Part shown: positions 1 to 13,683 of the stretch, one piece after another
How the letters are laid out: the number at the start of each line of letters is the position of its first letter
How positions within the stretch are numbered: the stretch's first letter is position 1
Virus record (IMG/VR): IMGVR_UViG_2879742664_000002
From: a virus
Lineage: Duplodnaviria > Heunggongvirae > Uroviricota > Caudoviricetes
Length of the DNA stretch: 13,683 nucleotides
Reading direction: 5' to 3' (one strand)
Made by a program: the position numbers and the translations under genes
Notes under the pieces: model-generated
Database searches by the model: none
Told to the model about the DNA's origin: nothing
Seen by the model: the letters and a program-made list of their open reading frames with translations, nothing else

Positions 1-1107
1 TTAAACCCATTCCTGACCTCGAGTATCGTTATAGCGATCGGTGGTTGCCTGGACTTTATGTCCTAGTAATGTTTTTGTATCGATACCCTGTGCACGGTAC
101 AGCCGTTCTGATAGAGAGCGTTGTTCATGAAATGTTGGCGGAGTTTTTCCTGCTGGTGGAATTATCCCAGCCAGATCCCGTGCTTTGGCAAAGTAGTCGC
201 TCAGGTTGTCTTTACTCATCGGCTTCGGTTGTTTCTGGTGCCGACTATGGATTAGATATGGACTTAATATTCTGTCTCGGCACCCATCAATAACTTCTTT
301 TAACGTTATCCCAATGGCATCACAGCGTAGTGTAAGCGGTAACGCCAGACGCATTCCGGTTTTTCCCTGGGTGATATGCAAGTGTTCGTTCCACGCATCT
401 GAAAAACGCATGTGGCAAATGTCATCACGGCGCTGACCAGTAACAATCGCAAGAAGCATTGCGTTACGGATAAAGTGTTTTTCAGGCGTTGCATTGTAAA
501 TTTTTTGCCAGTCTTCCATGGTGAGCCTGGCTCTGGTTACTTTAGGGATCGGTTTACGGGTAGCCTCCGGAGGATTCCATCCAGGAGGAACTTCCCCTGC
601 ATGCTGTGCTTCTTTATAAATATCAACCCATAATCCACGATTTACTCTCGCTGTGCTGACCATGTCTTTATCCAGCCACTCATCCAGTATTAATGCAAAG
701 TCTCTTACTTCCAGTTCTTTCAATGGGTGGTTTCCCAGACGGGAAACCAGGTATGCAGCCATTCGAGTTTTTTCTTTGTGAGTTGTAGCTGCAATATCTC
801 CATTTTTCAGTCGCGTGTCCTGTATTTTCAGATATCGATCAACCCATGCCTTTAATCTGATACCCCGACGTTTTGTTGCTGACGGACTTTCATCAATTTT
901 GCGCATGAAATATTCAGCTTCTGCTGCAGCTATTCGCTGATTGGCTGTGGAAGCGATTTTTTCTGCCTTACCTTTGTCTGTTCCGAGTCCGTGAAATTTT
1001 CCAGTCACAGGATTTTTATACTGGTAGTAAACTCTGCCAGTTCTGCGATCAAACTTTTCGTAAAGACCGGCTACGTCAGTGCTGTTTTTTCGTGGCCTCG
1101 GTGACAT
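1..1107 (-). CDS. int: Phage tyrosine integrase (lambdoid Int family)
   Basis: 368-aa minus-strand ORF; stop codon is bases 1-3, ATG at 1105-1107 with AAGGAG-type RBS just upstream (plus-strand ctcctt 1118-1123). C-terminal tyrosine-recombinase signature visible in translation (TGQRRDD, HEQRSLSERLY, LLGH, terminal Y in TDRY). Confidence 0.9.
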   Translation of the reverse strand: MSPRPRKNSTDVAGLYEKFDRRTGRVYYQYKNPVTGKFHGLGTDKGKAEKIASTANQRIAAAEAEYFMRKIDESPSATKRRGIRLKAWVDRYLKIQDTRLKNGDIAATTHKEKTRMAAYLVSRLGNHPLKELEVRDFALILDEWLDKDMVSTARVNRGLWVDIYKEAQHAGEVPPGWNPPEATRKPIPKVTRARLTMEDWQKIYNATPEKHFIRNAMLLAIVTGQRRDDICHMRFSDAWNEHLHITQGKTGMRLALPLTLRCDAIGITLKEVIDGCRDRILSPYLIHSRHQKQPKPMSKDNLSDYFAKARDLAGIIPPAGKTPPTFHEQRSLSERLYRAQGIDTKTLLGHKVQATTDRYNDTRGQEWV

Positions 1108-1311
1108 GAGTTAAAATCTCCTTCAGTGCATCATCATCGCCAGTATGAATTTCCGGCGCAATTCCCGTTTCACCTGGCCCAACAAATACTGCTCGGCGAT
1201 CTATCAGCCAACGCCCACGAATTTTTTGTGGTCTTGGAACGATGTATCCTAGTTTTCCGTATTTCACCAGGGTAGTGAGACTGAACCGTTTTGGTTTCCA
1301 CTCGTCGAGCG
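1076..1311 (-). pseudogene. xis: Excisionase (Xis-like) lacking its 5' end and start codon; truncated by IS1
   Basis: Phage-derived part of ORF 1076..1486 (LDEWKPKRFSLTTLVKYGKLGYIVPRPQKIRGRWLIDRRAV...) resembles lambda Xis as recalled (N-terminal ...LTLQEW... then a basic winged-helix region). Overlaps int start by 32 bp as xis-int pairs typically do. Reading frame upstream of 1311 is IS1 sequence. Confidence 0.55.
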
Positions 1312-1366
1312 GGTAATGCTGCCAACTTACTGATTTAGTGTATGATGGTGATTTTAAGGTGCTTGC

Positions 1367-1642
1367 GTGGCTTCCATTTCCATCAGATGTCCTTCCTGCT
1401 CCGCTACTGAAGGCGTGGTGCGTAACGGCAAAAGCACTGCCGGACATCAGCGCTATCTCTGCTCTCATTGCCGTAAAACATGGCAACTACAGTTCACTTA
1501 CACCGCCTCTCAGCCCGGTACGCACCAGAAAATCATTGATATGGCCATGAATGGCGTCGGATGTCGCGCCAGTGCACGCATTATGGGCGTTGGCCTCAAC
1601 ACGGTTTTACGTCACTTAAAAAACTCAGGCCGCAGTCGGTAA
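1367..1642 (+). CDS. insA: IS1 InsA (transposition inhibitor / N-terminal part of InsAB' transposase)
   Basis: 91-aa ORF starting at GTG 1367; translation [43 protein letters not shown]... matches the IS1 InsA zinc-finger/HTH protein as recalled. Confidence 0.9.
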
Positions 1643-1668
1643 CCTCGCGCATATAACCGGGCAGTGAT

Positions 1669-2064
1669 GTGATTGTCTGCGCTGAAATGGACGAACAGTG
1701 GGGCTACGTCGGTGCTAAATCACGTCAGCGCTGGCTGTTTTACGCGTATGACAGGATACGGAGGACGGTTGTGGCGCACGTCTTCGGTGAACGCACTCTG
1801 GCCACACTGGAGCGTCTTCTGAGCCTGCTGTCGGCCTTTGAGGTCGTGGTATGGATGACGGATGGCTGGCCGCTGTATGAATCACGCCTGAAGGGAAAGC
1901 TGCACGTTATCAGCAAGCGTTACACTCAGCGCATTGAGCGACATAATCTGAATCTGAGACAACATCTGGCAAGGCTGGGACGGAAGTCACTGTCGTTCTC
2001 AAAATCGGTGGAGCTGCATGACAAGGTCATCGGGCATTATCTGAACATAAAACACTATCAGTAA
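1669..2064 (+). CDS. insB: IS1 InsB frame (expressed as InsAB' fusion by -1 frameshift)
   Basis: 131-aa ORF ([28 protein letters not shown]...[15 protein letters not shown]) matching IS1 InsB as recalled. Frame is open upstream of 1669 and overlaps the insA end, consistent with programmed frameshifting at the A6C motif. Confidence 0.85.
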
Positions 2065-2079
2065 GTTGGAGTCATTACC

Positions 2080-3097
2080 CGCCGACTGCCTGGAATTTAT
2101 CTGGTCGTTACCCGAAAATTCTGTTGACCTGATAGTCACGGACCCGCCGTACTTTAAAGTGAAGCCTGAGGGCTGGGATAACCAGTGGAAGGGCGACGAT
2201 GATTACCTGAAGTGGCTGGAGCAGTGTCTGGCGCAGTTCTGGCGGGTGCTGAAACCTGCCGGAAGTCTTTACCTGTTCTGTGGTCATCGCCTGGCATCTG
2301 ATATCGAAATCATGATGCGTGAACGCTTCAGTGTGCTGAACCATATTATCTGAGCGAAGCCGTCCGGACGCTGGAACGGATGCAACAAGGAAAGCCTGCG
2401 GGCGTATTTCCCCGCCACAGAGCGCATTCTGTTCGCGGAACATTATCAGGGGCCGTACCGCCCGAAAGATGATGGCTATGAGGCGAAGGGCAGTGCACTG
2501 AAACAGCATGTGATGGCCCCGCTGATTTCTTACTTTCGTGATGCGCGAGCTGCCCTGGGGATAACGGCAAAACAGATTGCAGATGCCACAGGAAAGAAAA
2601 ACATGGTGTCGCACTGGTTCAGTGCCAGTCAGTGGCAGTTGCCGAATGAAAGCGATTATCTGAAATTACAGGCGCTGTTTGCCCGGGTGGCAGAAGAGAA
2701 GCATCGGCGTGGTGAACTGGAAAAGCTCCACCACCAGCTGGTGGATACGTATACCTCACTGAACCGGCAGTATGCGGAGCTGCTGAGTGAATATAAACAT
2801 CTGCGGCGGTATTTTGGCGTGACGGTGCAGGTGCCGTATACCGATGTGTGGACGCATAAACCGGTGCAGTTCTATCCCGGGAAACATCCGTGCGAAAAAC
2901 CGGCAGAAATGCTGCAGCAGATAATCAGCGCTAGCAGTCGTCCGGGTGACCTGATTGCAGATTTTTTCATGGGGTCGGGTTCGACAGTGAAAGCGGCACT
3001 GGCGCTCGGGCGTCGTGCAATTGGCGTTGAGCTGGAGACTGAACGTTTTGAGCAGACGGTTCGGGAAGTACAGGATTTAGTCAGCCAGAACGGATGA
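2080..3097 (+). pseudogene. Beta-class DNA methyltransferase (DPPY type, probably N6-adenine), N-terminally truncated by IS1 and interrupted by in-frame TGA at 2351-2353
   Basis: A single frame carries motif IV (LIVTDPPY), an HPCEKP motif, and motif I (DFFMGSGST) near the C-terminus, with stop at 3095-3097. The only interruption is TGA 2351-2353 in the sequence NHII*AKPSGRWNG. No native start codon downstream of the IS1 end; first in-frame start (TTG 2066) lies inside IS1. Confidence 0.7.
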
Positions 3098-3137
3098 TAT
3101 TGAAGAATTAATTACGCGTCGTTATTATGCGGCTCCC

Positions 3138-3213
3138 GGCCCTTTAGCTCAGTGGTGAGAGCGAGCGACTCATAATCGCCAGGTCGCTGGTTCAAATCCA
3201 GCAAGGGCCACCA
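3138..3213 (+). tRNA. ileZ: tRNA with CAT anticodon, ileX/ileY-like (tRNA-Ile2, lysidine-type; tRNAscan would call it Met)
   Basis: Hand-folded cloverleaf: acceptor ggccctt/aagggcc, D arm gctc-agtggtga-gagc, anticodon stem agcga/tcgcc with loop ctCATaa, T arm gctgg-ttcaaat-ccagc, discriminator A, encoded CCA. Gene symbol follows the prophage tRNA trio of Stx phages as recalled. Confidence 0.85.
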
Positions 3214-3220
3214 TCACATA

Positions 3221-3297
3221 CCGCCATTAGCTCATCAGGAAAGAGCGCCAGCCTTCGAAGCTGGCTGCGCGGGGTTCAAGTCCCCGATGGCGGTCCA
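3221..3297 (+). tRNA. argN: tRNA-Arg, anticodon read as TCG
   Basis: Hand-folded cloverleaf: acceptor ccgccat/atggcgg, D arm gctc-atcaggaaa-gagc, anticodon stem ccagc/gctgg with loop ctTCGaa, T arm cgggg-ttcaagt-ccccg, encoded CCA. Anticodon and symbol assignment are from manual folding and memory, not a tRNA-finder run. Confidence 0.75.
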
Positions 3298-3310
3298 TTA
3301 TCTGCATCAT

Positions 3311-3387
3311 GCGTTGTTAGCTCAGCCGGACAGAGCAATTGCCTTCTAAGCAATCGGTCACTGGTTCGAATCCAGTACAACGCGCCA
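3311..3387 (+). tRNA. argO: tRNA-Arg, anticodon TCT (reads AGA)
   Basis: Hand-folded cloverleaf: acceptor gcgttgt/acaacgc, D arm gctc-agccggaca-gagc, anticodon stem attgc/gcaat with loop ctTCTaa, T arm actgg-ttcgaat-ccagt, discriminator G, encoded CCA. Confidence 0.8.
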
Positions 3388-3401
3388 CACTTATTTTCCC
3401 T

Positions 3402-3427
3402 GGCTCGCTTTTGCGGGCTTTTTTTTT
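3402..3427 (+). terminator. Rho-independent terminator after the tRNA cluster
   Basis: Stem gctcgc (3403-3408) / gcgggc (3413-3418) with one G-U pair, tttt loop, followed by a run of 9 T (3419-3427). Confidence 0.55.
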
Positions 3428-3623
3428 AAATGTCTCACAATTCAGACGGTTGACTGTTGTCTGGTTTGCGGGGAGTTTGTTAAAAGAAACTGGCATGGTG
3501 AATCCCCCTGTGCGGAGGGGCAATCAGCGAGTAGGTATATGGGATAATCGCGGATTCAGGTGCTGGTACTGAATTCACCGGGAGGCACCCGGCACCATGC
3601 AATGGCACATAGCGCCACTCTCC

Positions 3624-3650
3624 AGCCCCTCTCCGGAGGGGCTTTCTTGT
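3624..3650 (+). terminator. GC-rich hairpin with T-rich tail (candidate plus-strand terminator)
   Basis: 8-bp stem agcccctc (3624-3631) / gaggggct (3636-3643), loop tccg, then ttcttgt. Confidence 0.4.
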
Positions 3651-3653
3651 GGG

Positions 3654-3683
3654 CAAAAAAAGCCCGCGCTGGGAGACGCGGGC
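3654..3683 (-). terminator. Candidate minus-strand rho-independent terminator
   Basis: Stem gcccgcg (3662-3668) / cgcgggc (3677-3683) with 8-nt loop, preceded on the plus strand by an A7 run, i.e. hairpin followed by T7 when read on the minus strand. Confidence 0.4.
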
Positions 3684-3876
3684 GGCAAGGAATAAACAAT
3701 AAAACGTGAAGTAATATTTCAGCTGGCGAATAATACCCCATAGTAGTCACTCTGCGCAACTGCGCGGTCTTTTTCGAATTGCGGGCTGTCGTCTCTCTTC
3801 TGCCATTGTCCTGTAACTTCCGGACTTCAGCCCGCTCCTCATTTTACTCACAATATTATCCCGGCCGGGAGGATTC

Positions 3877-4956
3877 ATGGCTTTTAAACACTATGATGTT
3901 GTCAGGGCGGCGTCGCCGTCAGATCTTGCGGAAAAGCTGACACATAAACTGAAAGAGGGCTGGCAGCCGTTTGGTAGTCCGGTGGCCATAACCCCTTATA
4001 CTCTGATGCAGGCGATTGCAGCAGAAGGTGCAGTAATCAGCGCCACCAGCGACCCGGAGTATTACTTTGTTGTGGTTCTGGCAGGGCAGTCAAACGGCAT
4101 GTCGTATGGTGAAGGCCTTCCGCTGCCGGGGACATATGACCGTCCGGACCCGCGTATTAAGCAACTGGCGCGTCGCAGTACGGTGACACCGGGCGGTGCA
4201 GCATGCAAATATAACGACATCATTCTGGCGGACCATTGTCTGCATGATGTGCAGGACATGAGCCGTCTTAACCATCCGAAAGCGGACCTGTCAAAGGGGC
4301 AGTACGGAACCGTGGGGCAGGGGCTGCATATCGCCAAAAAACTGCTGCCGTTTATACCGGCGAATGCGGGCATTCTGCTGGTTCCGTGCTGTCGTGGTGG
4401 TTCAGCGTTCACCACCGGAGCTGATGGCACATACAGTGACGCGAGTGGTGCCTCGGAGAATTCAACCCGCTGGGGTGTGGACAAGCCGCTGTATAAGGAC
4501 CTTATCGGTCGAACAAAAGCGGCACTGGAGAAGAACCCGAAAAATGTGCTGTTTGCCGTGGTGTGGATGCAGGGGGAATTTGATTTTGGCGGTACGCCGG
4601 CAAATCATGCCGCACAGTTTGGTGCGCTGGTTGATAAATTCCGTGCAGACCTGGCGGATATGGCAGGCCAGTGCGTCGGTGGCTCTGCTGGCGGTGTTCC
4701 CTGGATATGCGGGGACACGACGTATTTCTGGAAGCAGAAGAACGAATCCACGTACCAGACGGTGTACGGCAGCTATAAAAATAAAACGGAAAAGAATATC
4801 CATTTCGTACCGTTCATGACCGATGAGAACGGGGTGAATGTGCCGACGAACAAACCGGAAGAAGACCCGGACATTCGGGGTATCGGTTATTACGGTTCGA
4901 AATGGCGTGACAGCTCAGCCACCTGGACGTCACAGGACAGGGCGAGCCATTTCTAG
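3877..4956 (+). CDS. Prophage NanS-p-like sialate O-acetylesterase (N-terminal DUF1737-like region plus SGNH/SASA esterase domain), probably C-terminally truncated
   Basis: ATG 3877 with GGGAGGA RBS (3866-3872). Translation begins MAFKHYDVVRAASPSDLAEKL... and contains the esterase motif VVVLAGQSNGMSYGEG. ORF ends at TAG 4954-4956, exactly where IS66-like sequence begins; relatives are recalled as roughly 600 aa or more. Confidence 0.7.
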   Translation: MAFKHYDVVRAASPSDLAEKLTHKLKEGWQPFGSPVAITPYTLMQAIAAEGAVISATSDPEYYFVVVLAGQSNGMSYGEGLPLPGTYDRPDPRIKQLARRSTVTPGGAACKYNDIILADHCLHDVQDMSRLNHPKADLSKGQYGTVGQGLHIAKKLLPFIPANAGILLVPCCRGGSAFTTGADGTYSDASGASENSTRWGVDKPLYKDLIGRTKAALEKNPKNVLFAVVWMQGEFDFGGTPANHAAQFGALVDKFRADLADMAGQCVGGSAGGVPWICGDTTYFWKQKNESTYQTVYGSYKNKTEKNIHFVPFMTDENGVNVPTNKPEEDPDIRGIGYYGSKWRDSSATWTSQDRASHF

Positions 4957-5291
4957 ACTGGCCCCCTGAATCTCCAGACAACCAGTATCACTTAAATAAG
5001 TGATAGTCTTAATACTAGTTTTTAGACTAGTCATTGGAGTACAGATGATTGATGTCTTAGGGCCGGAGAAACGCAGACGGCGTACCACACAGGAAAAGAT
5101 CGCAATTGTTCAGCAGAGCTTTGAACCGGGGATGACGGTCTCCCTCGTTGCCCGGCAACATGGTGTAGCAGCCAGCCAGTTATTTCTCTGGCGTAAGCAA
5201 TACCAGGAAGGAAGTCTTACTGCTGTGGCCGCCGGAGAACAGGTTGTTCCTGCCTCTGAACTTGCTGCCGCCATGAAGCAGATTAAAGAAC
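4957..5291 (+). mobile_element. IS66-family left-end fragment (leader plus 5' part of orf1), cut by IS629
   Basis: Contains an orf1 (HTH_Tnp_1-type, ISEc8-like as recalled) preceded by an 88-bp leader with palindromes. Right boundary is the IS629 left terminus at 5292. Left boundary is approximate; no GTAAGCG-type terminus seen at this end. Confidence 0.5.
5045..5291 (+). pseudogene. IS66-family orf1/TnpA (helix-turn-helix accessory protein), 3'-truncated by IS629
   Basis: ATG 5045 with GGAG RBS. Translation [58 protein letters not shown]...MKQIKEL runs into the IS629 terminus after about 82 codons; the tail NRPGNPGD of the ORF is IS629-encoded. Confidence 0.6.
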
Positions 5292-5345
5292 TGAACCGCC
5301 CCGGGAATCCTGGAGACTAAACTCCCTGAGAAAGAGGTAAACAGG

Positions 5346-5672
5346 ATGACTAAAAATACTCGTTTTTCCCCCGAAGTCCGTCAGAGGGCGATTCGTATGG
5401 TTCTGGAAAGTCAGGGCGAATATGACTCACAGTGGGCGGCAATTTGTTCCATTGCCCCAAAGATTGGCTGTATACCGGAGACTCTGCGTGTCTGGGTACG
5501 CCAGCATGAGCGGGATACCGGAGGCGGTGATGGCGGGCTCACCACCGCTGAACGTCAGCGTCTGAAAGAGCTGGAACGTGAAAATCGTGAACTGCGCCGC
5601 AGTAACGATATCCTTCGCCAGGCTTCCGCTTATTTTGCGAAGGCGGAGTTCGACCGCCTCTGGAAAAAGTGA
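5346..5672 (+). CDS. IS629 OrfA (HTH DNA-binding part of the transposase)
   Basis: 108-aa [45 protein letters not shown]... with leucine-zipper-like C-terminus, typical IS3-family OrfA. Confidence 0.9.
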
Positions 5673-6559
5673 TGCCACTGCTGGATAAGCTGCGTAAGCT
5701 GTACGGGGTCGGACCGGTATGCAGTGAACTACATATTGCCCCGTCAACGTATTACCACTGTCAGCAACAGCGACATCATCCTGATAAACGCAGTGCCCGT
5801 GCGCAGCGCGATGACTGGCTGAAGAAAGAGATACTGCGCGTATACGATGGGAATCATCAGGTATACGGTGTGCGTAAAGTCTGGCGTCAGTTGTTACGGG
5901 AAGGTATCAGAGTGGCCAGATGCACTGTGGCACGTCTCATGGCGGTTATGGGACTTGCCGGTGTTCTCCGGGGTAAAAAGGTCCGTACGACCATCAGCCG
6001 GAAAGCCGTTGCCGCAGGCGACCGCGTAAACCGTCAGTTCGTGGCAGAACGACCTGACCAGCTGTGGGTGGCTGATTTTACTTACGTCAGCACATGGCAG
6101 GGCTTCGTCTATGTGGCGTTCATTATTGATGTGTTTGCCGGATACATCGTGGGGTGGCGGGTCTCATCGTCCATGGAAACGACATTCGTGCTGGATGCTC
6201 TGGAGCAGGCGTTATGGGCCCGTCGACCGTCCGGCACGGTCCATCACAGTGATAAAGGTTCTCAGTATGTATCGCTGGCCTACACACAGCGGCTTAAGGA
6301 AGCCGGATTACTGGCATCAACAGGAAGTACAGGCGACTCGTATGACAACGCGATGGCGGAGAGCATCAATGGTCTTTACAAAGCGGAGGTAATACACCGT
6401 AAGAGCTGGAAAAACCGTGCAGAAGTGGAACTGGCCACACTCACGTGGGTGGACTGGTATAATAATCGACGATTGCTGGAAAGGCTGGGCCACATCCCTC
6501 CGGCAGAAGCAGAAAAAGCTTATTATGCTTCCATCGGAAACGATGATCTGGCAGCCTGA
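5669..6559 (+). CDS. IS629 OrfB (DDE catalytic domain; expressed as OrfAB by -1 frameshift)
   Basis: 296-aa ORF overlapping the orfA end in the -1 frame; DDE-type integrase-fold hallmarks ([24 protein letters not shown]). Confidence 0.9.
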
Positions 6560-6602
6560 GTTCACAGATAAAACACTCTCCAGGAAACCCGGGGCGGTTC
6601 AG

Positions 6603-6953
6603 GGTGAGGGTGGTGAAGGCCATCTGAGTTCTTTCTTTGTCCAGACAGATAAAGCCAGTATTAATGTTGCATACCATCATACAGTTAATCAACAAAAAGA
6701 ACTTGGCACGTTTGGCGCATTCGACCATGACTGGCATACGCTTGCATTTAAATTTAAGGGCAGTAACAGCATTAATGTTACTCCGGTGCTTGATGGTGTG
6801 GATGGACAGGCGTTTGACCTGGTGAAATGGGCCAATACTGCTAATGGACTCAACAGGTTTGTCATTACGGATATTACAGGTAGTGCAGAAACCTACCCTG
6901 TACTTATTGATACGGTGGAAGTTAAAGCAAACAAAGCTGGAGCAGCCGCATAA
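6603..6953 (+). pseudogene. Start-less C-terminal ORF fragment (116 codons) resuming at the IS629 right end; possibly the displaced 3' part of the nanS-p-like gene
   Basis: Reading frame is open from the first base after IS629 to TAA 6951-6953 (GEGGEGHLSSFFVQTDKASINVAYHH...VEVKANKAGAAA); no start codon outside the IS. Assignment to nanS-p is inference only. Confidence 0.4.
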
Positions 6954-6958
6954 TTGCT

Positions 6959-6995
6959 AAAAAAAGCCGCCAGCGGCAGGAATGGAAGCTGGCGG
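6959..6995 (-). terminator. Hairpin with flanking A/T run (minus-strand-oriented intrinsic terminator or bidirectional stop)
   Basis: 8-bp stem ccgccagc (6967-6974) / gctggcgg (6988-6995), 13-nt loop, A7 run at 6959-6965 on the plus strand (T7 after the hairpin on the minus strand). Confidence 0.35.
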
Positions 6996-7092
6996 AGGTA
7001 ATCCCAATGGAGAATGTAAAGAAAAGATGCTTTCGTACATTGGTTTTTTAAATGAAAACAATTCTCATTGTCAACCATAACGGTAAGAAATT

Positions 7093-7275
7093 ATGACATT
7101 TATTCATCAGGTGATGCTGTACTTCTGTACGGCGGTCTGTGTGCTGTATCTTCTTTCGGGTGGGTACAGGGCTGTGCGCGATTTCTGGTGCAGGCAGATT
7201 GATAAAAGGGCCGCTGAGAAAATCAGCGCCAGTCAGTCAGCCGGAAGCAAACCCGAAGAACCCGTTACTCCTTAA
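7093..7275 (+). CDS. Hypothetical small protein with hydrophobic N-terminus (60 aa)
   Basis: ATG 7093, weak RBS; translation MTFIHQVMLYFCTAVCVLYLLSGG... then a charged tail. Competes with an overlapping alternative frame (7139..7546); weakly supported. Confidence 0.3.
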   Translation: MTFIHQVMLYFCTAVCVLYLLSGGYRAVRDFWCRQIDKRAAEKISASQSAGSKPEEPVTP

Positions 7276-7300
7276 CAACCCCTTTCAGCGAGAAAATCCC

Positions 7301-7546
7301 ATGTCAGAAATCACATCCCTGGTCACTGCAGAGGCAGTGAAGGAAGTCCTGCGCTCTGAAGAAGTCCGGAGCGCACTGAAACAGAAACTTCGCCAGAATC
7401 TTGAGTCGCGTCTTGATGCAGAAGTGGATGCCATTCTGGATGAGCTGCTGGGCGTAGCAGCGGTTCCTGAGCCGGAAGGTATCGCGGGTGACGGGAGTGC
7501 TTCAGATGGCGGTGAACCTACACCTGACAGCGACATGATGATGTAA
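7301..7546 (+). CDS. Hypothetical acidic protein (81 aa)
   Basis: ATG 7301 after a purine-rich stretch (gagaaaa); helical-looking, strongly acidic C-terminus (...[26 protein letters not shown]). Lies immediately upstream of the holin. Confidence 0.45.
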
Positions 7547-7622
7547 GCATGCGCAAGGGACCATCGGTGTGTGCCGGTGGTCTTTATATTGTTGTGAGCT
7601 TCCGGATTGCGGGAGACGGGGT

Positions 7623-7838
7623 ATGTACCAGATGGAAAAAATCACAACAGGTGTGTCATACACCACGTCAGCGGTGGGAACGGGCTACTGGTTCCTGCAG
7701 TTGCTGGACAGGTTTTCCCCGTCTCAGTGGGCGGCAATAGGCGTGCTGGGGAGTCTGTTGTTTGGGCTGCTGACATATCTGACTAACCTGTATTTCAAAA
7801 TCAGAGAGGACCGTCGTAAGGCGGCGCGGGGAGAGTAA
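7623..7838 (+). CDS. S: Holin, phage 21 S-like (pinholin type)
   Basis: 71-aa [74 protein letters not shown] with two hydrophobic segments and a basic C-terminus. RBS GGGAGACGGGG; two in-frame ATGs (7623, 7632). Confidence 0.8.
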
Positions 7839-7842
7839 AGCG

Positions 7843-8187
7843 ATGAAGAAAAAATACGAACTGGTTGTTAAAGGGATAAATAATTACCCGAATAAGATTA
7901 CTGTTACTGTGGCACTGGAAATTGGTGGGTATCCGTCACTGTTGTTGCCAGATGTGGCGATTAGTCTTGACCGTACTGAAGATGCCACGCTGGAGTTTTA
8001 CGAAGCTGAGGCGAAAAAGCAGGCGAAGCAGTTTTTCATGGATGTTGCTGCCGGGTTATGTGAAGGGGATGGTCCGTTGCCGGAAAAGCGCCCCGTAATT
8101 TTAGAGGCGCAGGATGTGTTGATAACCTACAGAGGAAAACTACCGGGAATAATTACTGGTTCTCTGAAGACTCCACCGCTGGCCTGA
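7843..8187 (+). CDS. Hypothetical soluble protein (114 aa) between holin and endolysin
   Basis: ATG 7843 only 5 bp after the holin stop with GGAGAG RBS; no hydrophobic segment; no family recognised by eye. Confidence 0.5.
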   Translation: MKKKYELVVKGINNYPNKITVTVALEIGGYPSLLLPDVAISLDRTEDATLEFYEAEAKKQAKQFFMDVAAGLCEGDGPLPEKRPVILEAQDVLITYRGKLPGIITGSLKTPPLA

Positions 8188-8237
8188 AGACTTAACATAT
8201 CCAGGGATTTGAAATCGATAAACCCTGATAAATATCC

Positions 8238-8771
8238 ATGAACACCAAAATCAAATACGGCCTGTCGGCTGCCGTTCTGGCGCTGATTGCCGCAGGTGCG
8301 CCTGCGCCTGAAATCCTCGACCAGTTTCTGGATGAAAAGGAAGGTAACCACACCACGGCATACCGTGATGGCGCGGGTATCTGGACCATCTGCCGCGGTG
8401 CCATCCTGGTGGATAGTAAACCTGTCGTCCCGGGCATGAAGTTGTCGAAGGAAAAATGCGACCAGGTCAACGCCATTGAGCGTGATAAGGCGCTGGCATG
8501 GGTGGAGCGCAATATTAAAGTGCCGCTGACCGAACCCCAGAAAGCGGGTATCGCGTCATTTTGTCCCTATAACATTGGCCCCGGTAAGTGTTTCCCGTCG
8601 ACGTTTTACAGACGGATTAATGCTGGTGACCGCAGGGGAGCATGCGAAGCGATTCGCTGGTGGATTAAGGACGGTGGCAGAGACTGCCGTATCCGCTCAA
8701 ATAATTGCTACGGTCAGGTATCCCGGCGAGACCAGGAAAGTGCGCTGGCGTGCTGGGACATCGACAGATAA
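8238..8771 (+). CDS. R: SAR endolysin (T4-lysozyme-like GH24 muramidase with N-terminal signal-anchor-release segment)
   Basis: 177-aa ORF; N-terminal Gly/Ala-rich weakly hydrophobic segment (GLSAAVLALIAAGAPAP) followed by the catalytic E...D...T signature (EGNHTTAYRDGAGIWTICRG). Confidence 0.85.
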   Translation: MNTKIKYGLSAAVLALIAAGAPAPEILDQFLDEKEGNHTTAYRDGAGIWTICRGAILVDSKPVVPGMKLSKEKCDQVNAIERDKALAWVERNIKVPLTEPQKAGIASFCPYNIGPGKCFPSTFYRRINAGDRRGACEAIRWWIKDGGRDCRIRSNNCYGQVSRRDQESALACWDIDR

Positions 8772-8861
8772 GCAGAATATTTTGCTGAAAATAAGGCATG
8801 AGCACGCGGACGGATAACACGAAATCCTGCGAACTGGCGAAACGTAAGTGAATAAAAGTAA

Positions 8862-8900
8862 AAACCCCGTTTGTTGGCACCAGGCGGGGTTTTGTGTTTC
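8862..8900 (+). terminator. Intrinsic terminator/attenuator-like hairpin between R and the downstream small ORFs
   Basis: Stem aaaccccg (8862-8869) / cggggttt (8885-8892), extendable with G-U pairs to about 13 bp, followed by tttgtgtttc. Confidence 0.5.
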
Positions 8901-8926
8901 TGACCTTGAGTAAGGCAAGGGAGAAC

Positions 8927-9109
8927 ATGGCGAAGTATAAACGAATTCTGTTGAGGTTGACCATGAAAAACGGCCTTGAACTGAAAGCGCCTGTAACTGA
9001 TGACATCAGCAGAGCACTGGCTTTTGCCATTAAGTGGGTGGCGGTCGGTGTTGCTGTGTCCCCGATGCTGTATGGGCTGGCAAAACTGGTCATTGCGTTG
9101 AAATCGTGA
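8927..9109 (+). CDS. Hypothetical small membrane protein (60 aa)
   Basis: ATG 8927 with AAGGGAG upstream; basic N-terminal half (MAKYKRILLRLTMKNG...) and one C-terminal hydrophobic helix (WVAVGVAVSPMLYGLAKLVIAL). Confidence 0.4.
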   Translation: MAKYKRILLRLTMKNGLELKAPVTDDISRALAFAIKWVAVGVAVSPMLYGLAKLVIALKS

Positions 9110-9123
9110 AGGGAGGATTAAGC

Positions 9124-9255
9124 ATGTCAGACAAACTCATAACGCTGGCGAAGATCCTCTGTGTAATTGTCGGCATTTCATTTTCACTAATGCTGGTTGC
9201 TCTTTTTCTTTCCATGGCCTGGATGATGTTGTCTTCGTCGGGGCTGCTGGGGTGA
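9124..9255 (+). CDS. Hypothetical small hydrophobic protein (43 aa), translationally coupled to Rz
   Basis: ATG 9124 with strong GGGAGGA RBS at 6-nt spacing; almost entirely hydrophobic (ITLAKILCVIVGISFSLMLVALFLSMAWMML); stop TGA 9253-9255 overlaps the Rz GTG start (9252-9254). Confidence 0.45.
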   Translation: MSDKLITLAKILCVIVGISFSLMLVALFLSMAWMMLSSSGLLG

Positions 9256-9650
9256 ACATAAACCGAATGCTTTCCGCGTTTACCGTTATTCTGCTGGTGG
9301 TCTGTGGTGCGCTGTGGCTGGCAACAGACCATTACCGTGATAACGCCATCACCTACAAAGCGCAGCGCGATAAAAAAGCCAGAGAGCTGGAGCTGGCAAA
9401 CGCAACCATTACTGACATGCAGCAGCGCCAGCGTGATGTTGCCGCTGGTCGTAAGCGCCTGCGGATCAACGCCACCTGCTCCGGTACCGTGCGTGAAGCC
9501 ACCGGCACCTCCGGAATGGATAATGCAACCGGCCCCCGACTGGCAGACACCGCTGAACGGGATTATTTCACCCTCAGAGAGCGGTTGATGACAATGCAGA
9601 AGCAACTGGAAGGGGCGCAGGAATATATCCGCACTCAGTGTATTAACTAG
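9252..9650 (+). CDS. Rz: Rz inner-membrane spanin (i-spanin)
   Basis: 132-aa ORF (start GTG 9252 or ATG 9267) with N-terminal TM helix then HYRDNAITYKAQRDK...RLADTAERDYFTLRERLMTMQKQLEGAQEYI, closely resembling lambda Rz as recalled. Confidence 0.85.
   Translation: MNINRMLSAFTVILLVVCGALWLATDHYRDNAITYKAQRDKKARELELANATITDMQQRQRDVAAGRKRLRINATCSGTVREATGTSGMDNATGPRLADTAERDYFTLRERLMTMQKQLEGAQEYIRTQCIN
9436..9588 (+). CDS. Rz1: Rz1 outer-membrane lipoprotein spanin (o-spanin), embedded in the +1 frame of Rz
   Basis: ATG 9436 inside Rz; MLPLVVSACGSTPPAPVPCVKPPAPPEWIMQPAPDWQTPLNGIISPSESG has a lipobox (VSAC) and proline-rich body like lambda Rz1. Confidence 0.8.
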   Translation: MLPLVVSACGSTPPAPVPCVKPPAPPEWIMQPAPDWQTPLNGIISPSESG

Positions 9651-9673
9651 TATTTTTGTTATCCGGAGAATGC

Positions 9674-9898
9674 ATGAAGAAATTACTGGTAACCGTAAAG
9701 CCTTTTCAGGGAACAATTCCGTTCCGTATTTTGCAGCGTGGTCGTGTTCTTGTTGAAGGTTCGTTCAGTGGTAAATGTACGCAATTACACTCCCGGACCT
9801 TTCAGGTGAATGCCACGAATGAAGAGCTAACCGTTGAGTGTACGATGAATGCCGCTAAATGCCGCATGGTATCCGCTGCATTACAGCCAGTGTGTTGA
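9674..9898 (+). CDS. Hypothetical small protein (74 aa, four Cys)
   Basis: ATG 9674 with GGAGA RBS at 5-nt spacing, 24 bp after the Rz stop; no signal peptide or TM segment; no recognisable family. Confidence 0.45.
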   Translation: MKKLLVTVKPFQGTIPFRILQRGRVLVEGSFSGKCTQLHSRTFQVNATNEELTVECTMNAAKCRMVSAALQPVC

Positions 9899-9933
9899 GC
9901 GACCTTATTAACCATGCGCGGTATTGTCGCCGT

Positions 9934-9996
9934 ATCCCCGCATTAACAGAGACCGCAGCCCGACCGGGAGACTCCTCTGCGCGAGTGTGCGGGGAT
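9934..9996. repeat. Nested inverted-repeat element (potential long stem-loop) in a 338-bp non-coding region
   Basis: Outer 9-bp inverted repeat atccccgca (9934-9942) / tgcggggat (9988-9996) enclosing inner inverted repeat cagag (9947-9951) / ctctg (9975-9979); GC-rich, no T-tract on either side. Confidence 0.35.
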
Positions 9997-10179
9997 AATC
10001 AAAAACGATACACACCGGGGTTTACCGCGTTAACGGAGCGCGGCGTTGTCCCCTCATGGTCGCTGGTCCGGTGCGATGGTGGAAGAAACCGGACGATGTG
10101 TTACCTCGCAAGCTCTGTTATGTCATGTGTCTGATTTGTGATTTAAGTCGGATAATTGTCGTTGCCATTAAGCAGAGGA

Positions 10180-10222
10180 TTGATGACCGACAGGGTGGCA
10201 TTGTTAGAATAAGACTTATTCT
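10180..10222 (+). promoter_or_regulatory. Candidate promoter with overlapping perfect palindromic operator upstream of the TonB-C lipoprotein gene
   Basis: TTGATG (10180-10185) and TAGAAT (10205-10210) separated by 19 bp; 17-bp perfect palindrome AGAATAAG-A-CTTATTCT at 10206-10222 overlaps the -10-like hexamer, 14 bp before ATG 10237. Confidence 0.3.
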
Positions 10223-10236
10223 TATCTGTGCCGGGA

Positions 10237-10569
10237 ATGAAAATGAAAAGAAACCTTCCGTTAATTATTTTGTTGTCTTCTCTGGTTATGGGCTGTACGC
10301 AACATAAAACAGATATGCCCCGACAGTTGGTTAAGGCATTACCACAATATCCGGCCTATGCAGCGGCAAATTATATAAAGGGACGGGTTGATGTGAAGTT
10401 TGATATTGGTGCTGATGGTACTGTCACCCGAATTGAGTTTATCCGTTCAGAGCCGCACCATTTGTTTGATGAGCAGGTTGTAAAGGCGATGGCAAAATGG
10501 CGATTTGAGAAGGACAGGCCGTGTAAAGGCGTGAAGAAAACGTTTATCTTTAGTCCTTCTGCACCCTGA
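10237..10569 (+). CDS. Lipoprotein with TonB C-terminal domain (TonB_C-like), prophage accessory gene
   Basis: Signal peptide with lipobox (MKMKRNLPLIILLSSLVMGC, Thr at +2). Mature region PQYPAYAAANYIKGRVDVKFDIGADGTVTRIEFIRSEPHHLFDEQVVKAMAKWRFE aligns by eye with E. coli TonB C-terminal domain ([34 protein letters not shown]...FEREVKNAMRRWRYE). Start could be ATG 10237 or 10243. Confidence 0.75.
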   Translation: MKMKRNLPLIILLSSLVMGCTQHKTDMPRQLVKALPQYPAYAAANYIKGRVDVKFDIGADGTVTRIEFIRSEPHHLFDEQVVKAMAKWRFEKDRPCKGVKKTFIFSPSAP

Positions 10570-10700
10570 TTATTTCATCAGAAATTAATTATCACTCTGT
10601 TGTTATTCTGTACATCCCGGCAGGGTAAGTCTTGTTCCGTCGGATATGAAGATGAAATATTGTTGGAGGACAGTGGGTACCTGCTCCTGTAACCGAACGT

Positions 10701-10901
10701 TCATTTCTCGTTATTTTTCATGCTGGCCGGGCGCAGATGCGTTGCATCTGTTGCCAGCCTTCTCCTGCAGGCTTCAATAACCCACGCTGAAAAGTTTCCT
10801 GAACCTTTCAGATCAAGAGCGATGTTAATTTGTTCAATCATCTGGTTTGGAAATCGGATGTTGCGGGTTGTTGTTCTGCGGGTTCTGTTCTTTGATGACA
10901 T
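10701..10901 (-). CDS. Small ribbon-helix-helix (CopG/Arc-like) DNA-binding protein
   Basis: 66-aa minus-strand ORF, ATG at 10899-10901 with GGGGA upstream; basic N-terminal strand then two helices (TRNIRFPNQMIEQINIALDLKGSGNFSAWVIEACRRRL). Convergent with the lipoprotein gene. Confidence 0.6.
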   Translation of the reverse strand: MSSKNRTRRTTTRNIRFPNQMIEQINIALDLKGSGNFSAWVIEACRRRLATDATHLRPASMKNNEK

Positions 10902-10986
10902 AATGTTTCCCCATATTCAGTGTTGCTGATTTGTATTATCTGAAGTTGCTTTTACGTTAATTTGATGCAGATCAATCAATACGATA

Positions 10987-12415
10987 GTAAGCGTCAACGG
11001 AGCACCGTATTGACGCTTATTTATTGGTGAGTGCTACGTTCCATGGCAGGAGTTCGTCAACACGGTTGGAAGGCCATTCCGGCAGTACGCTCAGGATATA
11101 GCGCAGATACGCTTCCGGATCGATACCGTTCAGTCGGCAGGTGCCGATCAGCCCGTACAGTAGCGCACCACGCTCTCCACCGTGATCGCTGCCGAAGAAC
11201 ATAAAGTTTTTCTTTCCGAGACAGACTGCACGAAGCGCTCTTTCCGCGGCATTATTATCCGCCTCAGCCAGACCATCATCACTGAAGTTGCACAACGCAA
11301 CCCAGTGCTTCCTGATATACCGGAACGCATCTCTCAGACGGCATTTTTTCGATAACGTGTGTTCTTTCTCCTGCATCAGCTTATACAGGGAAGTCAGTAG
11401 CGGTTTACTCTGCATTTGCCTGACCGCCAGGCGTTCAGACACCGGCAACCCGCGTATTTCGTGCTCGATGGCGTACAGCTCACCGATTAGTTTCAGGGCT
11501 TCTTCCGCTGTCGCGCTTTTGGTACTGATATATACATCGTGGACTTTGCGCCGCGCATGAGCCCAGCATCCTGCTTCCGTCAACGCGCCGCCTTCTCGTT
11601 CGGCACTGAACAGCCGATCGTAACCATTAAACGCATCTGCCTGCAGGATACCCCGGAAGGGACTAAGGTGCTGCTCCGGATGTTTACCCTGATGGTCCGG
11701 TGAGTAGGCGAACCAGACCGCCGGAGGCTCTGGCGAACCGGCATTCCTGTCATCCCGGACATACGTCCAGATATATCCTGTTTTCGCCTTCTTCCTGCCC
11801 GGTGCCAGCACTTTTACTGGTGTGTCATCAGTGTGAACTTTGCGGCTGTTCATTACATAACGGTACAGAGCATCATTCAGCGGCGTCATTAACTGGCAGC
11901 ACGCGTCAACCCAGTTGGAGAGTAATGCACGGCTCAGTTCGACACCCTGACGGGCAAAAATTTCACTCTGACGATACAGTGGCAGGTGTTCGCAGTATTT
12001 TCCCGTTAACACGCGGGCAAGTAACCCCGGGCCCGCGATACCACGCTCTATCGGACGGGATGGTGCCGGTGCTTCAACGATGCAGTCACATTTTGTACAG
12101 GCTTTTTTTACCCGTTCTGTGCGGATCACTTTCAGAGCGCTGCTCACCAGTTCCAGTTGTTCTGCGCTGACTTCCCCCAGATAATCCAGCTCACCGCCAC
12201 ACTCCGGGCAACAGCTTTCTTCTGGCTCCAGGCGATTTATTTCGCGGGGCAGATGCTCCGGTAACGGGCGACGATGACGAGACTGTCGCAACTGGCGGGG
12301 AACCTGCGGATCGTCTTCCCGCCCACTGTAACGATCACTGTCCTGTTCGCGTTGTTTCAGCAGGGCCTCAGCCTGTTCAACTTCACGACGCAGTTTTTCA
12401 GAACGGGTACCGAAC
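10987..12415 (-). mobile_element. IS66-family element, right-end portion (terminal repeat plus tnpC), truncated by IS629
   Basis: GTAAGCG terminal motif at 10987-10993 (typical IS66 terminus as recalled); tnpC-type ORF on the minus strand; abuts the IS629 left terminus at 12416. Confidence 0.7.
11017..12415 (-). pseudogene. IS66-family transposase TnpC (DDE_Tnp_IS66 type), 5'-truncated by IS629
   Basis: Frame open from the IS629 junction with no ATG (FGTRSEKLRREVEQAEALLKQ... then CCPECGGEL zinc-ribbon motif, LPLYRQSEIFARQGVELSRALL, DDTPVKV, C-terminal LLPWNV); stop at 11017-11019. About the first 50 codons are missing. Confidence 0.8.
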
Positions 12416-12469
12416 TGAACCGCCCCGGGAATCCTGGAGACTAAACTCCCTGAGAAAGAGGTAAACAGG

Positions 12470-12796
12470 ATGACTAAAAATACTCGTTTTTCCCCCGAAG
12501 TCCGTCAGAGGGCGATTCGTATGGTTCTGGAAAGTCAGGGCGAATATGACTCACAGTGGGCGGCAATTTGTTCCATTGCCCCAAAGATTGGCTGTACACC
12601 GGAGACTCTGCGTGTCTGGGTACGCCAGCATGAGCGGGATACCGGAGGCGGTGATGGCGGGCTCACCACCGCTGAACGTCAGCGTCTGAAAGAGCTGGAA
12701 CGTGAAAATCGTGAACTGCGCCGCAGTAACGATATCCTTCGCCAGGCTTCCGCTTATTTTGCGAAGGCGGAGTTCGACCGCCTCTGGAAAAAGTGA
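12470..12796 (+). CDS. IS629 OrfA (copy 2)
   Basis: 108-aa ORF identical to copy 1 except Ile to Thr at residue 43 ([12 protein letters not shown]). Confidence 0.9.
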
Positions 12797-13683
12797 TGCC
12801 ACTGCTGGATAAGCTGCGTAAGCTGTACGGGGTCGGACCGGTATGCAGTGAACTACATATTGCCCCGTCAACGTATTACCACTGTCAGCAACAGCGACAT
12901 CATCCTGATAAACGCAGTGCCCGTGCGCAGCGCGATGACTGGCTGAAGAAAGAGATACTGCGCGTATACGATGGGAATCATCAGGTATACGGTGTGCGTA
13001 AAGTCTGGCGTCAGTTGTTACGGGAAGGTATCAGAGTGGCCAGATGCACTGTGGCACGTCTCATGGCGGTTATGGGACTTGCCGGTGTTCTCCGGGGTAA
13101 AAAGGTCCGTACGACCATCAGCCGGAAAGCCGTTGCCGCAGGCGACCGCGTAAACCGTCAGTTCGTGGCAGAACGACCTGACCAGCTGTGGGTGGCTGAT
13201 TTTACTTACGTCAGCACATGGCAGGGCTTCGTCTATGTGGCGTTCATTATTGATGTGTTTGCCGGATACATCGTGGGGTGGCGGGTCTCATCGTCCATGG
13301 AAACGACATTCGTGCTGGATGCTCTGGAGCAGGCGTTATGGGCCCGTCGACCGTCCGGCACGGTCCATCACAGTGATAAAGGTTCTCAGTATGTATCGCT
13401 GGCCTACACACAGCGGCTTAAGGAAGCCGGATTACTGGCATCAACAGGAAGTACAGGCGACTCGTATGACAACGCGATGGCGGAGAGCATCAATGGTCTT
13501 TACAAAGCGGAGGTAATACACCGTAAGAGCTGGAAAAACCGTGCAGAAGTGGAACTGGCCACGCTCACGTGGGTGGACTGGTATAATAATCGACGATTGC
13601 TGGAAAGGCTGGGCCACATCCCTCCGGCAGAAGCAGAAAAAGCTTATTATGCTTCCATCGGAAACGATGATCTGGCAGCCTGA
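12793..13683 (+). CDS. IS629 OrfB (copy 2; expressed as OrfAB by frameshift)
   Basis: 296-aa ORF matching copy 1 at the protein level; stop codon is the last three bases of the window. Confidence 0.9.

Follow-up and report, generated by a model that had tools for sequence, protein, structure and literature searches.

The question raised by this locus is how two IS629-type elements in direct orientation came to bracket a phage lysis block, with each left end joined to part of another insertion sequence (IS) through the same junction, GAAC followed by TGAACC. The first-pass annotation took both adjoining pieces for IS66, in opposite orientations, and held that the geometry implied inversion or deletion. 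The window, meaning here the whole 13,683-nt stretch of DNA analysed, is an exact substring of the chromosome of Shigella flexneri serotype 6 strain 64-5500 (CP026811.1); in this serotype the prophage remnant adjoins potC/potD. The region is very probably a late-gene remnant of a Stx-phage-like lambdoid prophage without stx, struck independently by four kinds of IS, in which the two IS629 copies are independent insertions and no inversion has occurred.

In Stx-converting lambdoid phages the late region runs from a methyltransferase gene through tRNAs, stx, and nanS-p to the S-R-Rz lysis genes, and the same gene order is found here (Table 1). DNA identity of the window to Stx1a, Stx2a, and Stx2c phages and to E. 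coli prophages is 90–97%, and the phage records searched gave mosaic matches only. Unlike the Stx-converting phages, the window has no stx, early region, Q, or morphogenesis genes; tRNAs lie at 3138–3387 and nanS-p begins at 3877, with no stx genes in between. On the other side, an IS1 connects the integrase/excisionase end of the prophage straight to a truncated DNA methyltransferase gene, and homology to related phages picks up again at 2080, directly after it. The IS1 flanks are unlike (CGTCGAGCG vs. CGCCGACTG) and the 9-bp duplication is missing, so the early region and Q are deleted. This IS1-associated deletion has also deprived the lysis block of its late promoter along with the Q region.

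Table 1. Features of the window. Genes within the lysis/accessory block were located on L005 (window coordinate = L005 coordinate − 6124).
Feature	Position	Strand	Remarks
IS1	1312–2079 (768 bp)	+	inverted repeats; InsA/InsB ORFs
nanS-p 5' part (phage esterase, SASA/DUF1737)	3877–4953	+	cut by IS2
Left 338 bp of IS2	4954–5291	+	left terminal repeat and first 82 codons of orfA/insC
IS629-type element, copy 1	5292–6601 (1310 bp)	+	orfA 5346–5672, orfB 5669–6559
nanS-p 3' remainder (DUF6645 part)	6602–6953	+	residues 521–637, 100% in protein alignment
Lysis/accessory block	7093–10901	.	gene calls and Pfam matches on L005; synteny with annotated E. coli prophages
DUF1378	7093–7275		
DUF826	7199–7546		
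Class II holin	7623–7838		
DUF1327/YdfR	7843–8187		
Lysozyme	8238–8771		
Rz-type lysis protein	9252–9650		
TonB_C protein	10243–10569		
YlcI/YnfO	10701–10901	-	YlcI_YnfO_N match
IS66-family element, right-hand 1,429 bp	10987–12415	-	tnpC 3' 466 codons plus right terminal repeat, with its end at 10987
AAC, left half of copy 2 target duplication	12413–12415	.	right half at window-equivalent 13726–13728, outside window
IS629-type element, copy 2	12416–13683	+	first 1,268 of 1,310 bp in window; window stops at orfB stop codon

The first-pass annotation was accurate about the IS629 copies themselves. They are in direct orientation on either side of the lysis block, copy 2 extending to position 13725 in the source genome (as seen in L005), and the "two or more" base differences between them are exactly two, at 5473 (T/C) and 6439 (A/G). 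Both are 1310 bp long with 25/26-nt terminal repeats starting TGAACCGCCCCGGG, the size and termini of IS629. Its orfA/orfB pair (108 and 296 aa, in −1 frame with a 4-nt overlap) is likewise intact in both. There is a match to NCBIfam transpos_IS3 (E 2.3e-92; DDE, rve transposase), and the Rfam ALIL frameshift pseudoknot is found in each copy at 116 bits (5627–5743 in copy 1, 12751–12867 in copy 2). The best E. coli matches, at 98.7–99.3% identity, are labeled just "IS3 family transposase," and one further record labels its copy as IS1203 family, IS1203 being, like IS3411, an isoform of IS629. The 3-bp target duplication typical of IS629 is present at copy 2 (AAC/AAC) and, as had been noted, absent from copy 1, which has AAC on the left and GGG on the right. 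A third copy, carried in inverted orientation by strain JWSL02 (L004), shows an ATG/ATG duplication. One base separates it from copy 1 and one from copy 2, in keeping with independent insertions that drew on a common sequence type. In O157 genomes, 21 of 47 IS629 sites had a matching 3–4 bp duplication and 26 did not, and 62% of the copies were located in prophages (PMC3271280).

The identity of the two adjoining fragments is decisive for the possible histories. The one to the left of copy 1 proved to be IS2 and not IS66 orf1. It is 98–99% identical in DNA to annotated IS2 copies; compared with the one in K-12 W3110, identity is 98.6% over 351 bp with the same first base, and the start of the element (TAGACTGG) and its left flank (ATTTC) are both identical. 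This is the only IS2 flank present, the right end of the element having been deleted. The best protein family is NCBIfam "IS2 repressor TnpA" (E 9.6e-56, 187.5 bits, profile positions 1–85 of 121), with a score that, owing to truncation of the protein, does not reach the cut-off for the full length. Assignment to IS66 tnpA/orf1 was rejected, since the IS66 TnpA models give 62.5 and 47.9 bits (E 5e-17), under their cut-offs of 74 and 150, and so was assignment to an IS66 left end, the terminus being that of IS2 and not GTAAGCG. Pfam HTH_Tnp_1 is recorded for IS2 OrfA and IS66 TnpA products alike, and this common helix-turn-helix domain explains the misreading; a practical lesson is that the two are readily confused by eye.

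At copy 2 the identification of IS66 was sound. The minus-strand tnpC that its left end abuts matches NCBIfam transpos_IS66 (E 1.5e-134) and is 99.6% identical to an IS66 tnpC in E. coli FDAARGOS_943, 95.6% to ISEc43-family copies, and 87.7% to ISEc23. When the right flank was followed beyond the window, as had been suggested, the AAC duplication was found and then contiguous IS66: a 78-aa N-terminal piece of TnpC, TnpB_IS66, the element's own TnpA (encoded on the minus strand, 1 kb past the window's right edge), and finally its left terminal repeat; the element reaches window-equivalent position 14805. With IS629 removed in silico, the element is 2,506 bp long, has open tnpA, tnpB, and tnpC (139, 116, and 530 aa), and carries GTAAGCGT at both ends (terminus GTAAGCG), the three genes and terminal repeats expected of this family. 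Its 5' part reads AACAGCATCC. An uninterrupted relative (99.5% identical) has a single AAC, GGGTACCGAACAGCATCC. With the AAC duplicated and a whole IS66 element around it, copy 2 is, on sequence grounds, a plain insertion into tnpC of an otherwise complete IS66-family element.

The IS66 element does not itself have the 8-bp target duplication, its flanks being ATACGATA and TGTTGTTC. These unlike flanks, together with its position between ylcI (upstream) and a fragment of a tail-fibre-assembly gene, make it a deletion or recombination junction; the minus-strand element downstream of ylcI now marks the junction of a deletion reaching to the tail-fibre-assembly gene. An ISEc23 copy among the matches was considered as the same insertion and rejected, as it occupies another site (between the terminase and capsid genes) and is just 87.7% identical.

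An inversion would call for a single IS66 into which IS629 inserted; an IS629-mediated rearrangement would afterwards have broken this element in two and turned part of it round, leaving its orf1 end at copy 1 (plus strand) and its tnpC end at copy 2 (minus strand). Such a history would account for GAAC|TGAACC at both left junctions, for the missing duplication at copy 1, and for the weak IS66 TnpA match of the fragment there (E 5e-17, under the curated cut-off). However, that fragment is IS2 by DNA, terminus, and best protein family, and around copy 2 the whole of IS66 is present in colinear order, tnpA included, so that no missing IS66 part is left that could sit at copy 1. The single-IS66 history is already refuted, and next to no probability attaches to it. 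Of the rearrangements proposed in the first-pass annotation, inversion thus falls, one "IS66" fragment being IS2, and deletion stands, at copy 1. The matching duplications that it named as evidence against any such event were found at copy 2 (AAC) and not at copy 1.

The extent of the deletion can be read from the two neighbors of copy 1, position 338 of IS2 on the left and nanS-p on the right. The 5' ORF of nanS-p ends in a TAG formed by the first three bases of IS2; its 359-aa product has Pfam DUF1737 and SASA domains and aligns to residues 1–374 of NanS-p from E. coli FORC_069, which is intact and 637 aa long. The 3' remainder is 99.9% identical in DNA to L015 (2601–3299). With breakpoints mapped on the intact FORC_069 gene, 437 bp of nanS-p are absent between 4953 and 6602; together with 993 bp of IS2, ~1.43 kb adjoining the right end of copy 1 is absent, and this loss accounts for its lack of a duplication. 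IS2 entered nanS-p after ...GAGCCATTTC, as the data show. Copy 1 would first have entered IS2 orfA at ...GAAC, and the DNA to its right would then have been lost, either by transposase-dependent adjacent deletion or by homologous recombination, the partner being another IS629 in direct orientation once present in nanS-p.

The recombination route would make copy 1 a hybrid of two earlier IS629 elements in direct orientation, the first within IS2 orfA and the second within nanS-p, with the 1.43 kb between them removed; it departs from the favored history in the deletion mechanism alone. Its expected product has no duplication and has flanks that were ancestrally ~1.4 kb apart, as seen here, and these strains do gain extra IS629 copies in the prophage, as in L004. 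On the other hand, no IS629 is found at the nanS-p site among 5,426 E. coli genomes, and in the present data a transposase- or IEE-type adjacent deletion gives the same picture. IEE-dependent excision is known to yield IS629-adjacent deletions from a few bases to >40 kb (PMC9943667). Formation of copy 1 by recombination is possible but rather unlikely.

Both copy-1 junctions are missing from all 5,426 complete E. coli genomes, which therefore supply no intermediate state; for the same reason the locus may serve as a lineage marker. Matches to them with 100% coverage consisted of two separate pieces 170–390 bp apart and were discarded. Searches of complete E. coli genomes with the whole window and with its two non-IS halves found this arrangement in no record, and the right junction predicted for the ancestral state (IS629 right end, AAC, then IS2 continuing) was absent from the metagenome contigs scanned. 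In one draft contig, L010, the sequence carries on past the copy-1 breakpoint and into IS2. The final 45 bases contain many errors relative to the IS2 sequence, and the read-through may reflect the path that the assembler took through a repeat. An origin of the AAC beside copy 1 as a spacer from a donor circle junction was rejected, GAAC being native to IS2 there in the L010 read-through; the canonical IS2 sequence presumably has GAAC at this position as well.

The first-pass annotation had also described the 5.8-kb segment between the copies as poised for deletion or movement as a composite unit. It is indeed flanked by direct repeats, and "poised" for deletion is true of any direct-repeat pair. 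Four related assemblies have contigs of sufficient length to show the region, and in none of them is it deleted, inverted, or transposed. Arrival of IS629, the 5.8 kb, and IS629 in one piece, as a composite transposon, would be in keeping with the direct orientation of the copies, with intact orfA/orfB in both, and with outermost flanks that are both AAC. These flanks, however, do not belong to one target, the left being IS2 position 338 and the right IS66 tnpC, which contradicts movement of the block into its present site. The inner left and outer right flanks of copy 2 are contiguous in the uninterrupted IS66 relative, so the right-hand AAC stems from copy 2's own insertion. Nor is the inner DNA foreign, as it would be in a composite transposon within one duplicated 3-bp target: the nanS-p 3' part, lysis genes, and ylcI are colinear with the neighboring phage genes, in the order found in E. 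coli prophages. Arrival as one unit is thus extremely improbable; with two independent insertions, the lysis block would be passenger DNA.

The evidence lends no support to two further ideas, which jointly are considered improbable: that serotype 6 populations might repeatedly lose the 7.1-kb unit through the direct pair, and that GAAC might reflect a real preference of IS629 for sites resembling its own terminus (TGAAC), by which it would tend to disable rival IS. Copies 1 and 2 both have GAAC beside the left end, and both lie within the transposase gene of another element. For the third copy, in L004, this flank is different (CCAT), and a sequence-specific IS629 target is not reported in the published O157 data.

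The locus shows IS1, IS2, IS629, and an IS66-family element dismantling a Stx-phage-like prophage in S. flexneri serotype 6. It is an ordinary case of IS-driven prophage decay as already known, one more example with no new mechanism. IS629 in E. coli O157:H7 prophages has the same 1310-bp length, orfA/orfB −1 frameshift, and 3-bp duplication, the same preference for prophages, and the same mixture of sites with and without duplications and with adjacent deletions (PMC3271280; PMC9943667). Unlike those cases, the host here is S. flexneri serotype 6 and not EHEC, and both targets are themselves IS (IS2 orfA and an IS66-family tnpC). In the IS-driven decay described for Shigella genomes and prophages (PMC7373316), there is no difference of substance: the same truncated genes and IS at deletion junctions are seen, with the same nesting of IS1, IS2, IS629, and the IS66 family that is found here within 14 kb.

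Independent insertions of known elements, together with one adjacent deletion, account for the structure of the window. The first-pass annotation had taken oppositely oriented IS66 fragments at two IS629 copies, which bracket the lysis block, to imply inversion or deletion events; its observation is partly confirmed, its interpretation largely not. As it stated, there are two IS629-type copies in one orientation, found by repeat scan and base-by-base comparison to be a 1310-bp element that differs at more than one base, exactly two: window 5473 (T in copy 1, C in copy 2) and 6439 (A and G). Each copy encodes orfA (108 aa) and, in the -1 frame, orfB (296 aa), with a strong IS3-family transposase match (E 2.3e-92), an ALIL frameshift pseudoknot (116 bits) and terminal repeats starting TGAACCGCCCCGGG. 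The closest E. coli matches (98.7-99.3% identity) are annotated just as "IS3-family"; the name IS629 is consistent with the features of that element.

Features of the window, and of one related assembly where indicated
Feature	Position	Strand	Remarks
IS1	1312-2079		768 bp; joins int/xis side of prophage to DNA methyltransferase gene
DNA methyltransferase gene	2066-2353 and 2510-3097		N-terminally truncated, frameshifted
Three tRNA genes, then STnc100 sRNA	within 3138-3654		CAT, TCG, TCT anticodons; STnc100 match full-length (139 bits)
IS629-type copy 1	5292-6601	+	Repeat scan, base comparison
IS66-family tnpC, left of copy 2	10987-12415	-	E 1.5e-134
IS629-type copy 2	12416-13683	+	Repeat scan, base comparison; cut at window end, the orfB stop codon
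Third IS629	L004 14165-15474 (JWSL02000004.1)	inverted	Inserted at window 8038-8040, inside DUF1327/ydfR gene, holin-lysozyme interval

The arrangement was not found in complete E. coli genomes or phage records. A search for proteins identical to the truncated 359-aa NanS-p (3877-4956), product of a phage esterase gene, located it in several NCBI assemblies. The window occurs base for base in CP026811.1 (L005; L005 coordinate = window coordinate + 6124), from Shigella flexneri strain 64-5500, serotype 6 (PMC9455713), and assemblies L003, L004 and L006 have the locus at >99.9% identity; L003 (CP055124.1) is FDAARGOS_714, also serotype 6 (PMC9455713). The third IS629, in L004, has an ATG duplication, with C at IS position 182 and A at position 1148, so that a single base separates it from copy 1 and likewise from copy 2. 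These bases fit two independent insertions of one shared sequence type, each with a private change; they do not fit one copy as parent of the other.

Copy 2 is a simple insertion into an IS66-family tnpC, which abuts its left end on the minus strand, as first annotated. This tnpC shares 99.6% identity with an unnamed IS66 in E. coli FDAARGOS_943, 95.6% with ISEc43-family copies and 87.7% with ISEc23. The right flank, which the annotation suggested inspecting, was read in L005, which reaches 1,273 bp past the window end: the left flank ends ...GGGTACCGAAC, and AACAGCATCC... comes directly after the right end of IS629. The uninterrupted FDAARGOS_943 relative reads GGGTACCGAACAGCATCC, with a single AAC, which makes the AAC at copy 2 a true 3-bp target duplication. 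Beyond copy 2 lie the first 78 tnpC codons, tnpB and tnpA, and the left terminal repeat closes the element at window-equivalent 14805. Minus IS629 and one AAC, the element is 2,506 bp, with GTAAGCGT at both ends and ORFs of 139, 116 and 530 aa; no part of it is missing, so none could sit at copy 1. It has no 8-bp duplication (window 10979-10986 ATACGATA versus L005 20930-20937, window-equivalent 14806-14813, TGTTGTTC). Its far flank is a fragment of a Caudo_TAP (tail-fibre-assembly) gene, so the terminase-to-tail (morphogenesis) genes have been lost at this junction. The ~84 bp from ylcI to the end of the IS66 element (10903-10986) have no counterpart in the compared E. coli prophages, in which ylcI is followed by an HNH endonuclease gene. 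A draft contig (AERO01000124.1, L008 4820-5647) follows copy 1 to its position 989 (window 6280) and then enters an IS66-family left end in plus orientation, which reflects either misjoined repeats or, in that strain, insertion of an IS66 into IS629.

The fragment left of copy 1, first annotated as IS66 orf1, proved to be IS2. The ORF running into copy 1 matches the NCBIfam 'IS2 repressor TnpA' profile (E 9.6e-56, positions 1-85 of 121), with matches to IS66 TnpA models under cut-offs (E 5e-17 and 1e-12), and thousands of annotated IS2 copies match the DNA at 4940-5291 with 98-99% identity. In alignment it begins TAGACTGG at window 4954, the same start base as the K-12 W3110 copy, so 4954-5291 corresponds to IS2 positions 1-338. 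ATTTC lies directly left of IS2 both here (window 4949-4953) and in the W3110 yidZ-yieE copy (L014 1316-1320), possibly from target preference or coincidence. An identical nanS-p/IS2 junction occurs in a phage just 97.7% identical, on gut metagenome contig ERZ4567471 (L007 8204-11151); either IS2 therefore entered long ago or the site is a hot spot.

Copy 1 lacks a 3-bp target duplication, as had been noted, with AAC (IS2) on its left and GGG on its right; from 6602 the sequence is the 3' part of nanS-p. Relative to the intact nanS-p of E. coli FORC_069 (L015), IS2 enters after ...GAGCCATTTC at 2163 and the copy 1 right end meets nanS-p at 2601; therefore 437 bp of nanS-p (residues 375-520 of 637) are absent, as are IS2 positions 339-1331. 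The mapped breakpoints place copy 1 at a deletion. Of the inversion or deletion previously read from this geometry, the deletion stands; inversion of a split IS66 does not, the fragment being IS2 and the IS66 element whole. In the simplest history, we infer, IS629 would have entered IS2 orfA at ...GAAC, and ~1.43 kb to its right would then have been lost, through a deletion next to the element or through recombination with a further direct copy of IS629. No intermediate state was found in the E. coli genomes or metagenome contigs searched. Only draft contig L010 reads through the copy 1 breakpoint into IS2; its end appears error-rich against the IS2 sequence, and the contig may be an assembler path through a repeat. 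IS629 copies that lack a duplication are common enough: of 47 sites in O157 genomes, just 21 have one (PMC3271280), and IS629-adjacent deletions from a few bases to >40 kb are documented (PMC9943667).

Both left junctions are indeed preceded by GAAC. At copy 2 its final three bases are the target duplication; at copy 1 it is native IS2 sequence, L010 reading ...AAAGAACTCCAGCG... through the site, as does canonical IS2. Two independent 4-mers agree by chance in ~1/256 trials, but this agreement was picked out in hindsight. The third IS629 has CCAT instead, and a survey of O157 IS629 found no sequence-specific target (PMC3271280). We take the common GAAC to be chance or, at the very most, a weak preference.

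The 5.8-kb segment enclosed by the copies shows the colinear layout of an ordinary lambdoid late region (nanS-p 3' end, DUF1378, DUF826, holin, DUF1327, lysozyme, Rz, TonB_C protein, ylcI). The suggestion that this block is poised for deletion or movement holds as far as its direct-repeat flanks go: recombination between the copies could delete it, as for any direct repeat. Transposition of an IS629-block-IS629 unit into the site is ruled out by the outer flanks, IS2 and IS66 sequence, which are mutually non-contiguous. Comparison for a deleted arrangement found the block in place in all four assemblies with sufficiently long contigs (L003-L006), with the extra IS629 in L004.

The prophage is a wreck, and the structure of the window follows the usual pattern of IS-driven decay in Shigella (PMC7373316) and of the way IS629 behaves in prophages (PMC3271280); the biology of the locus is already known. 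Related phages carry stx1 or stx2 between the tRNA genes and nanS-p, whereas here there are no stx genes between the tRNA/STnc100 segment and nanS-p. IS1 is without its 9-bp duplication (flanks CGTCGAGCG and CGCCGACTG), and the whole early region, Q and the late promoter appear to have been lost at its junction. The phage on the gut metagenome contig retains replication genes, rusA and a Q-type antiterminator.
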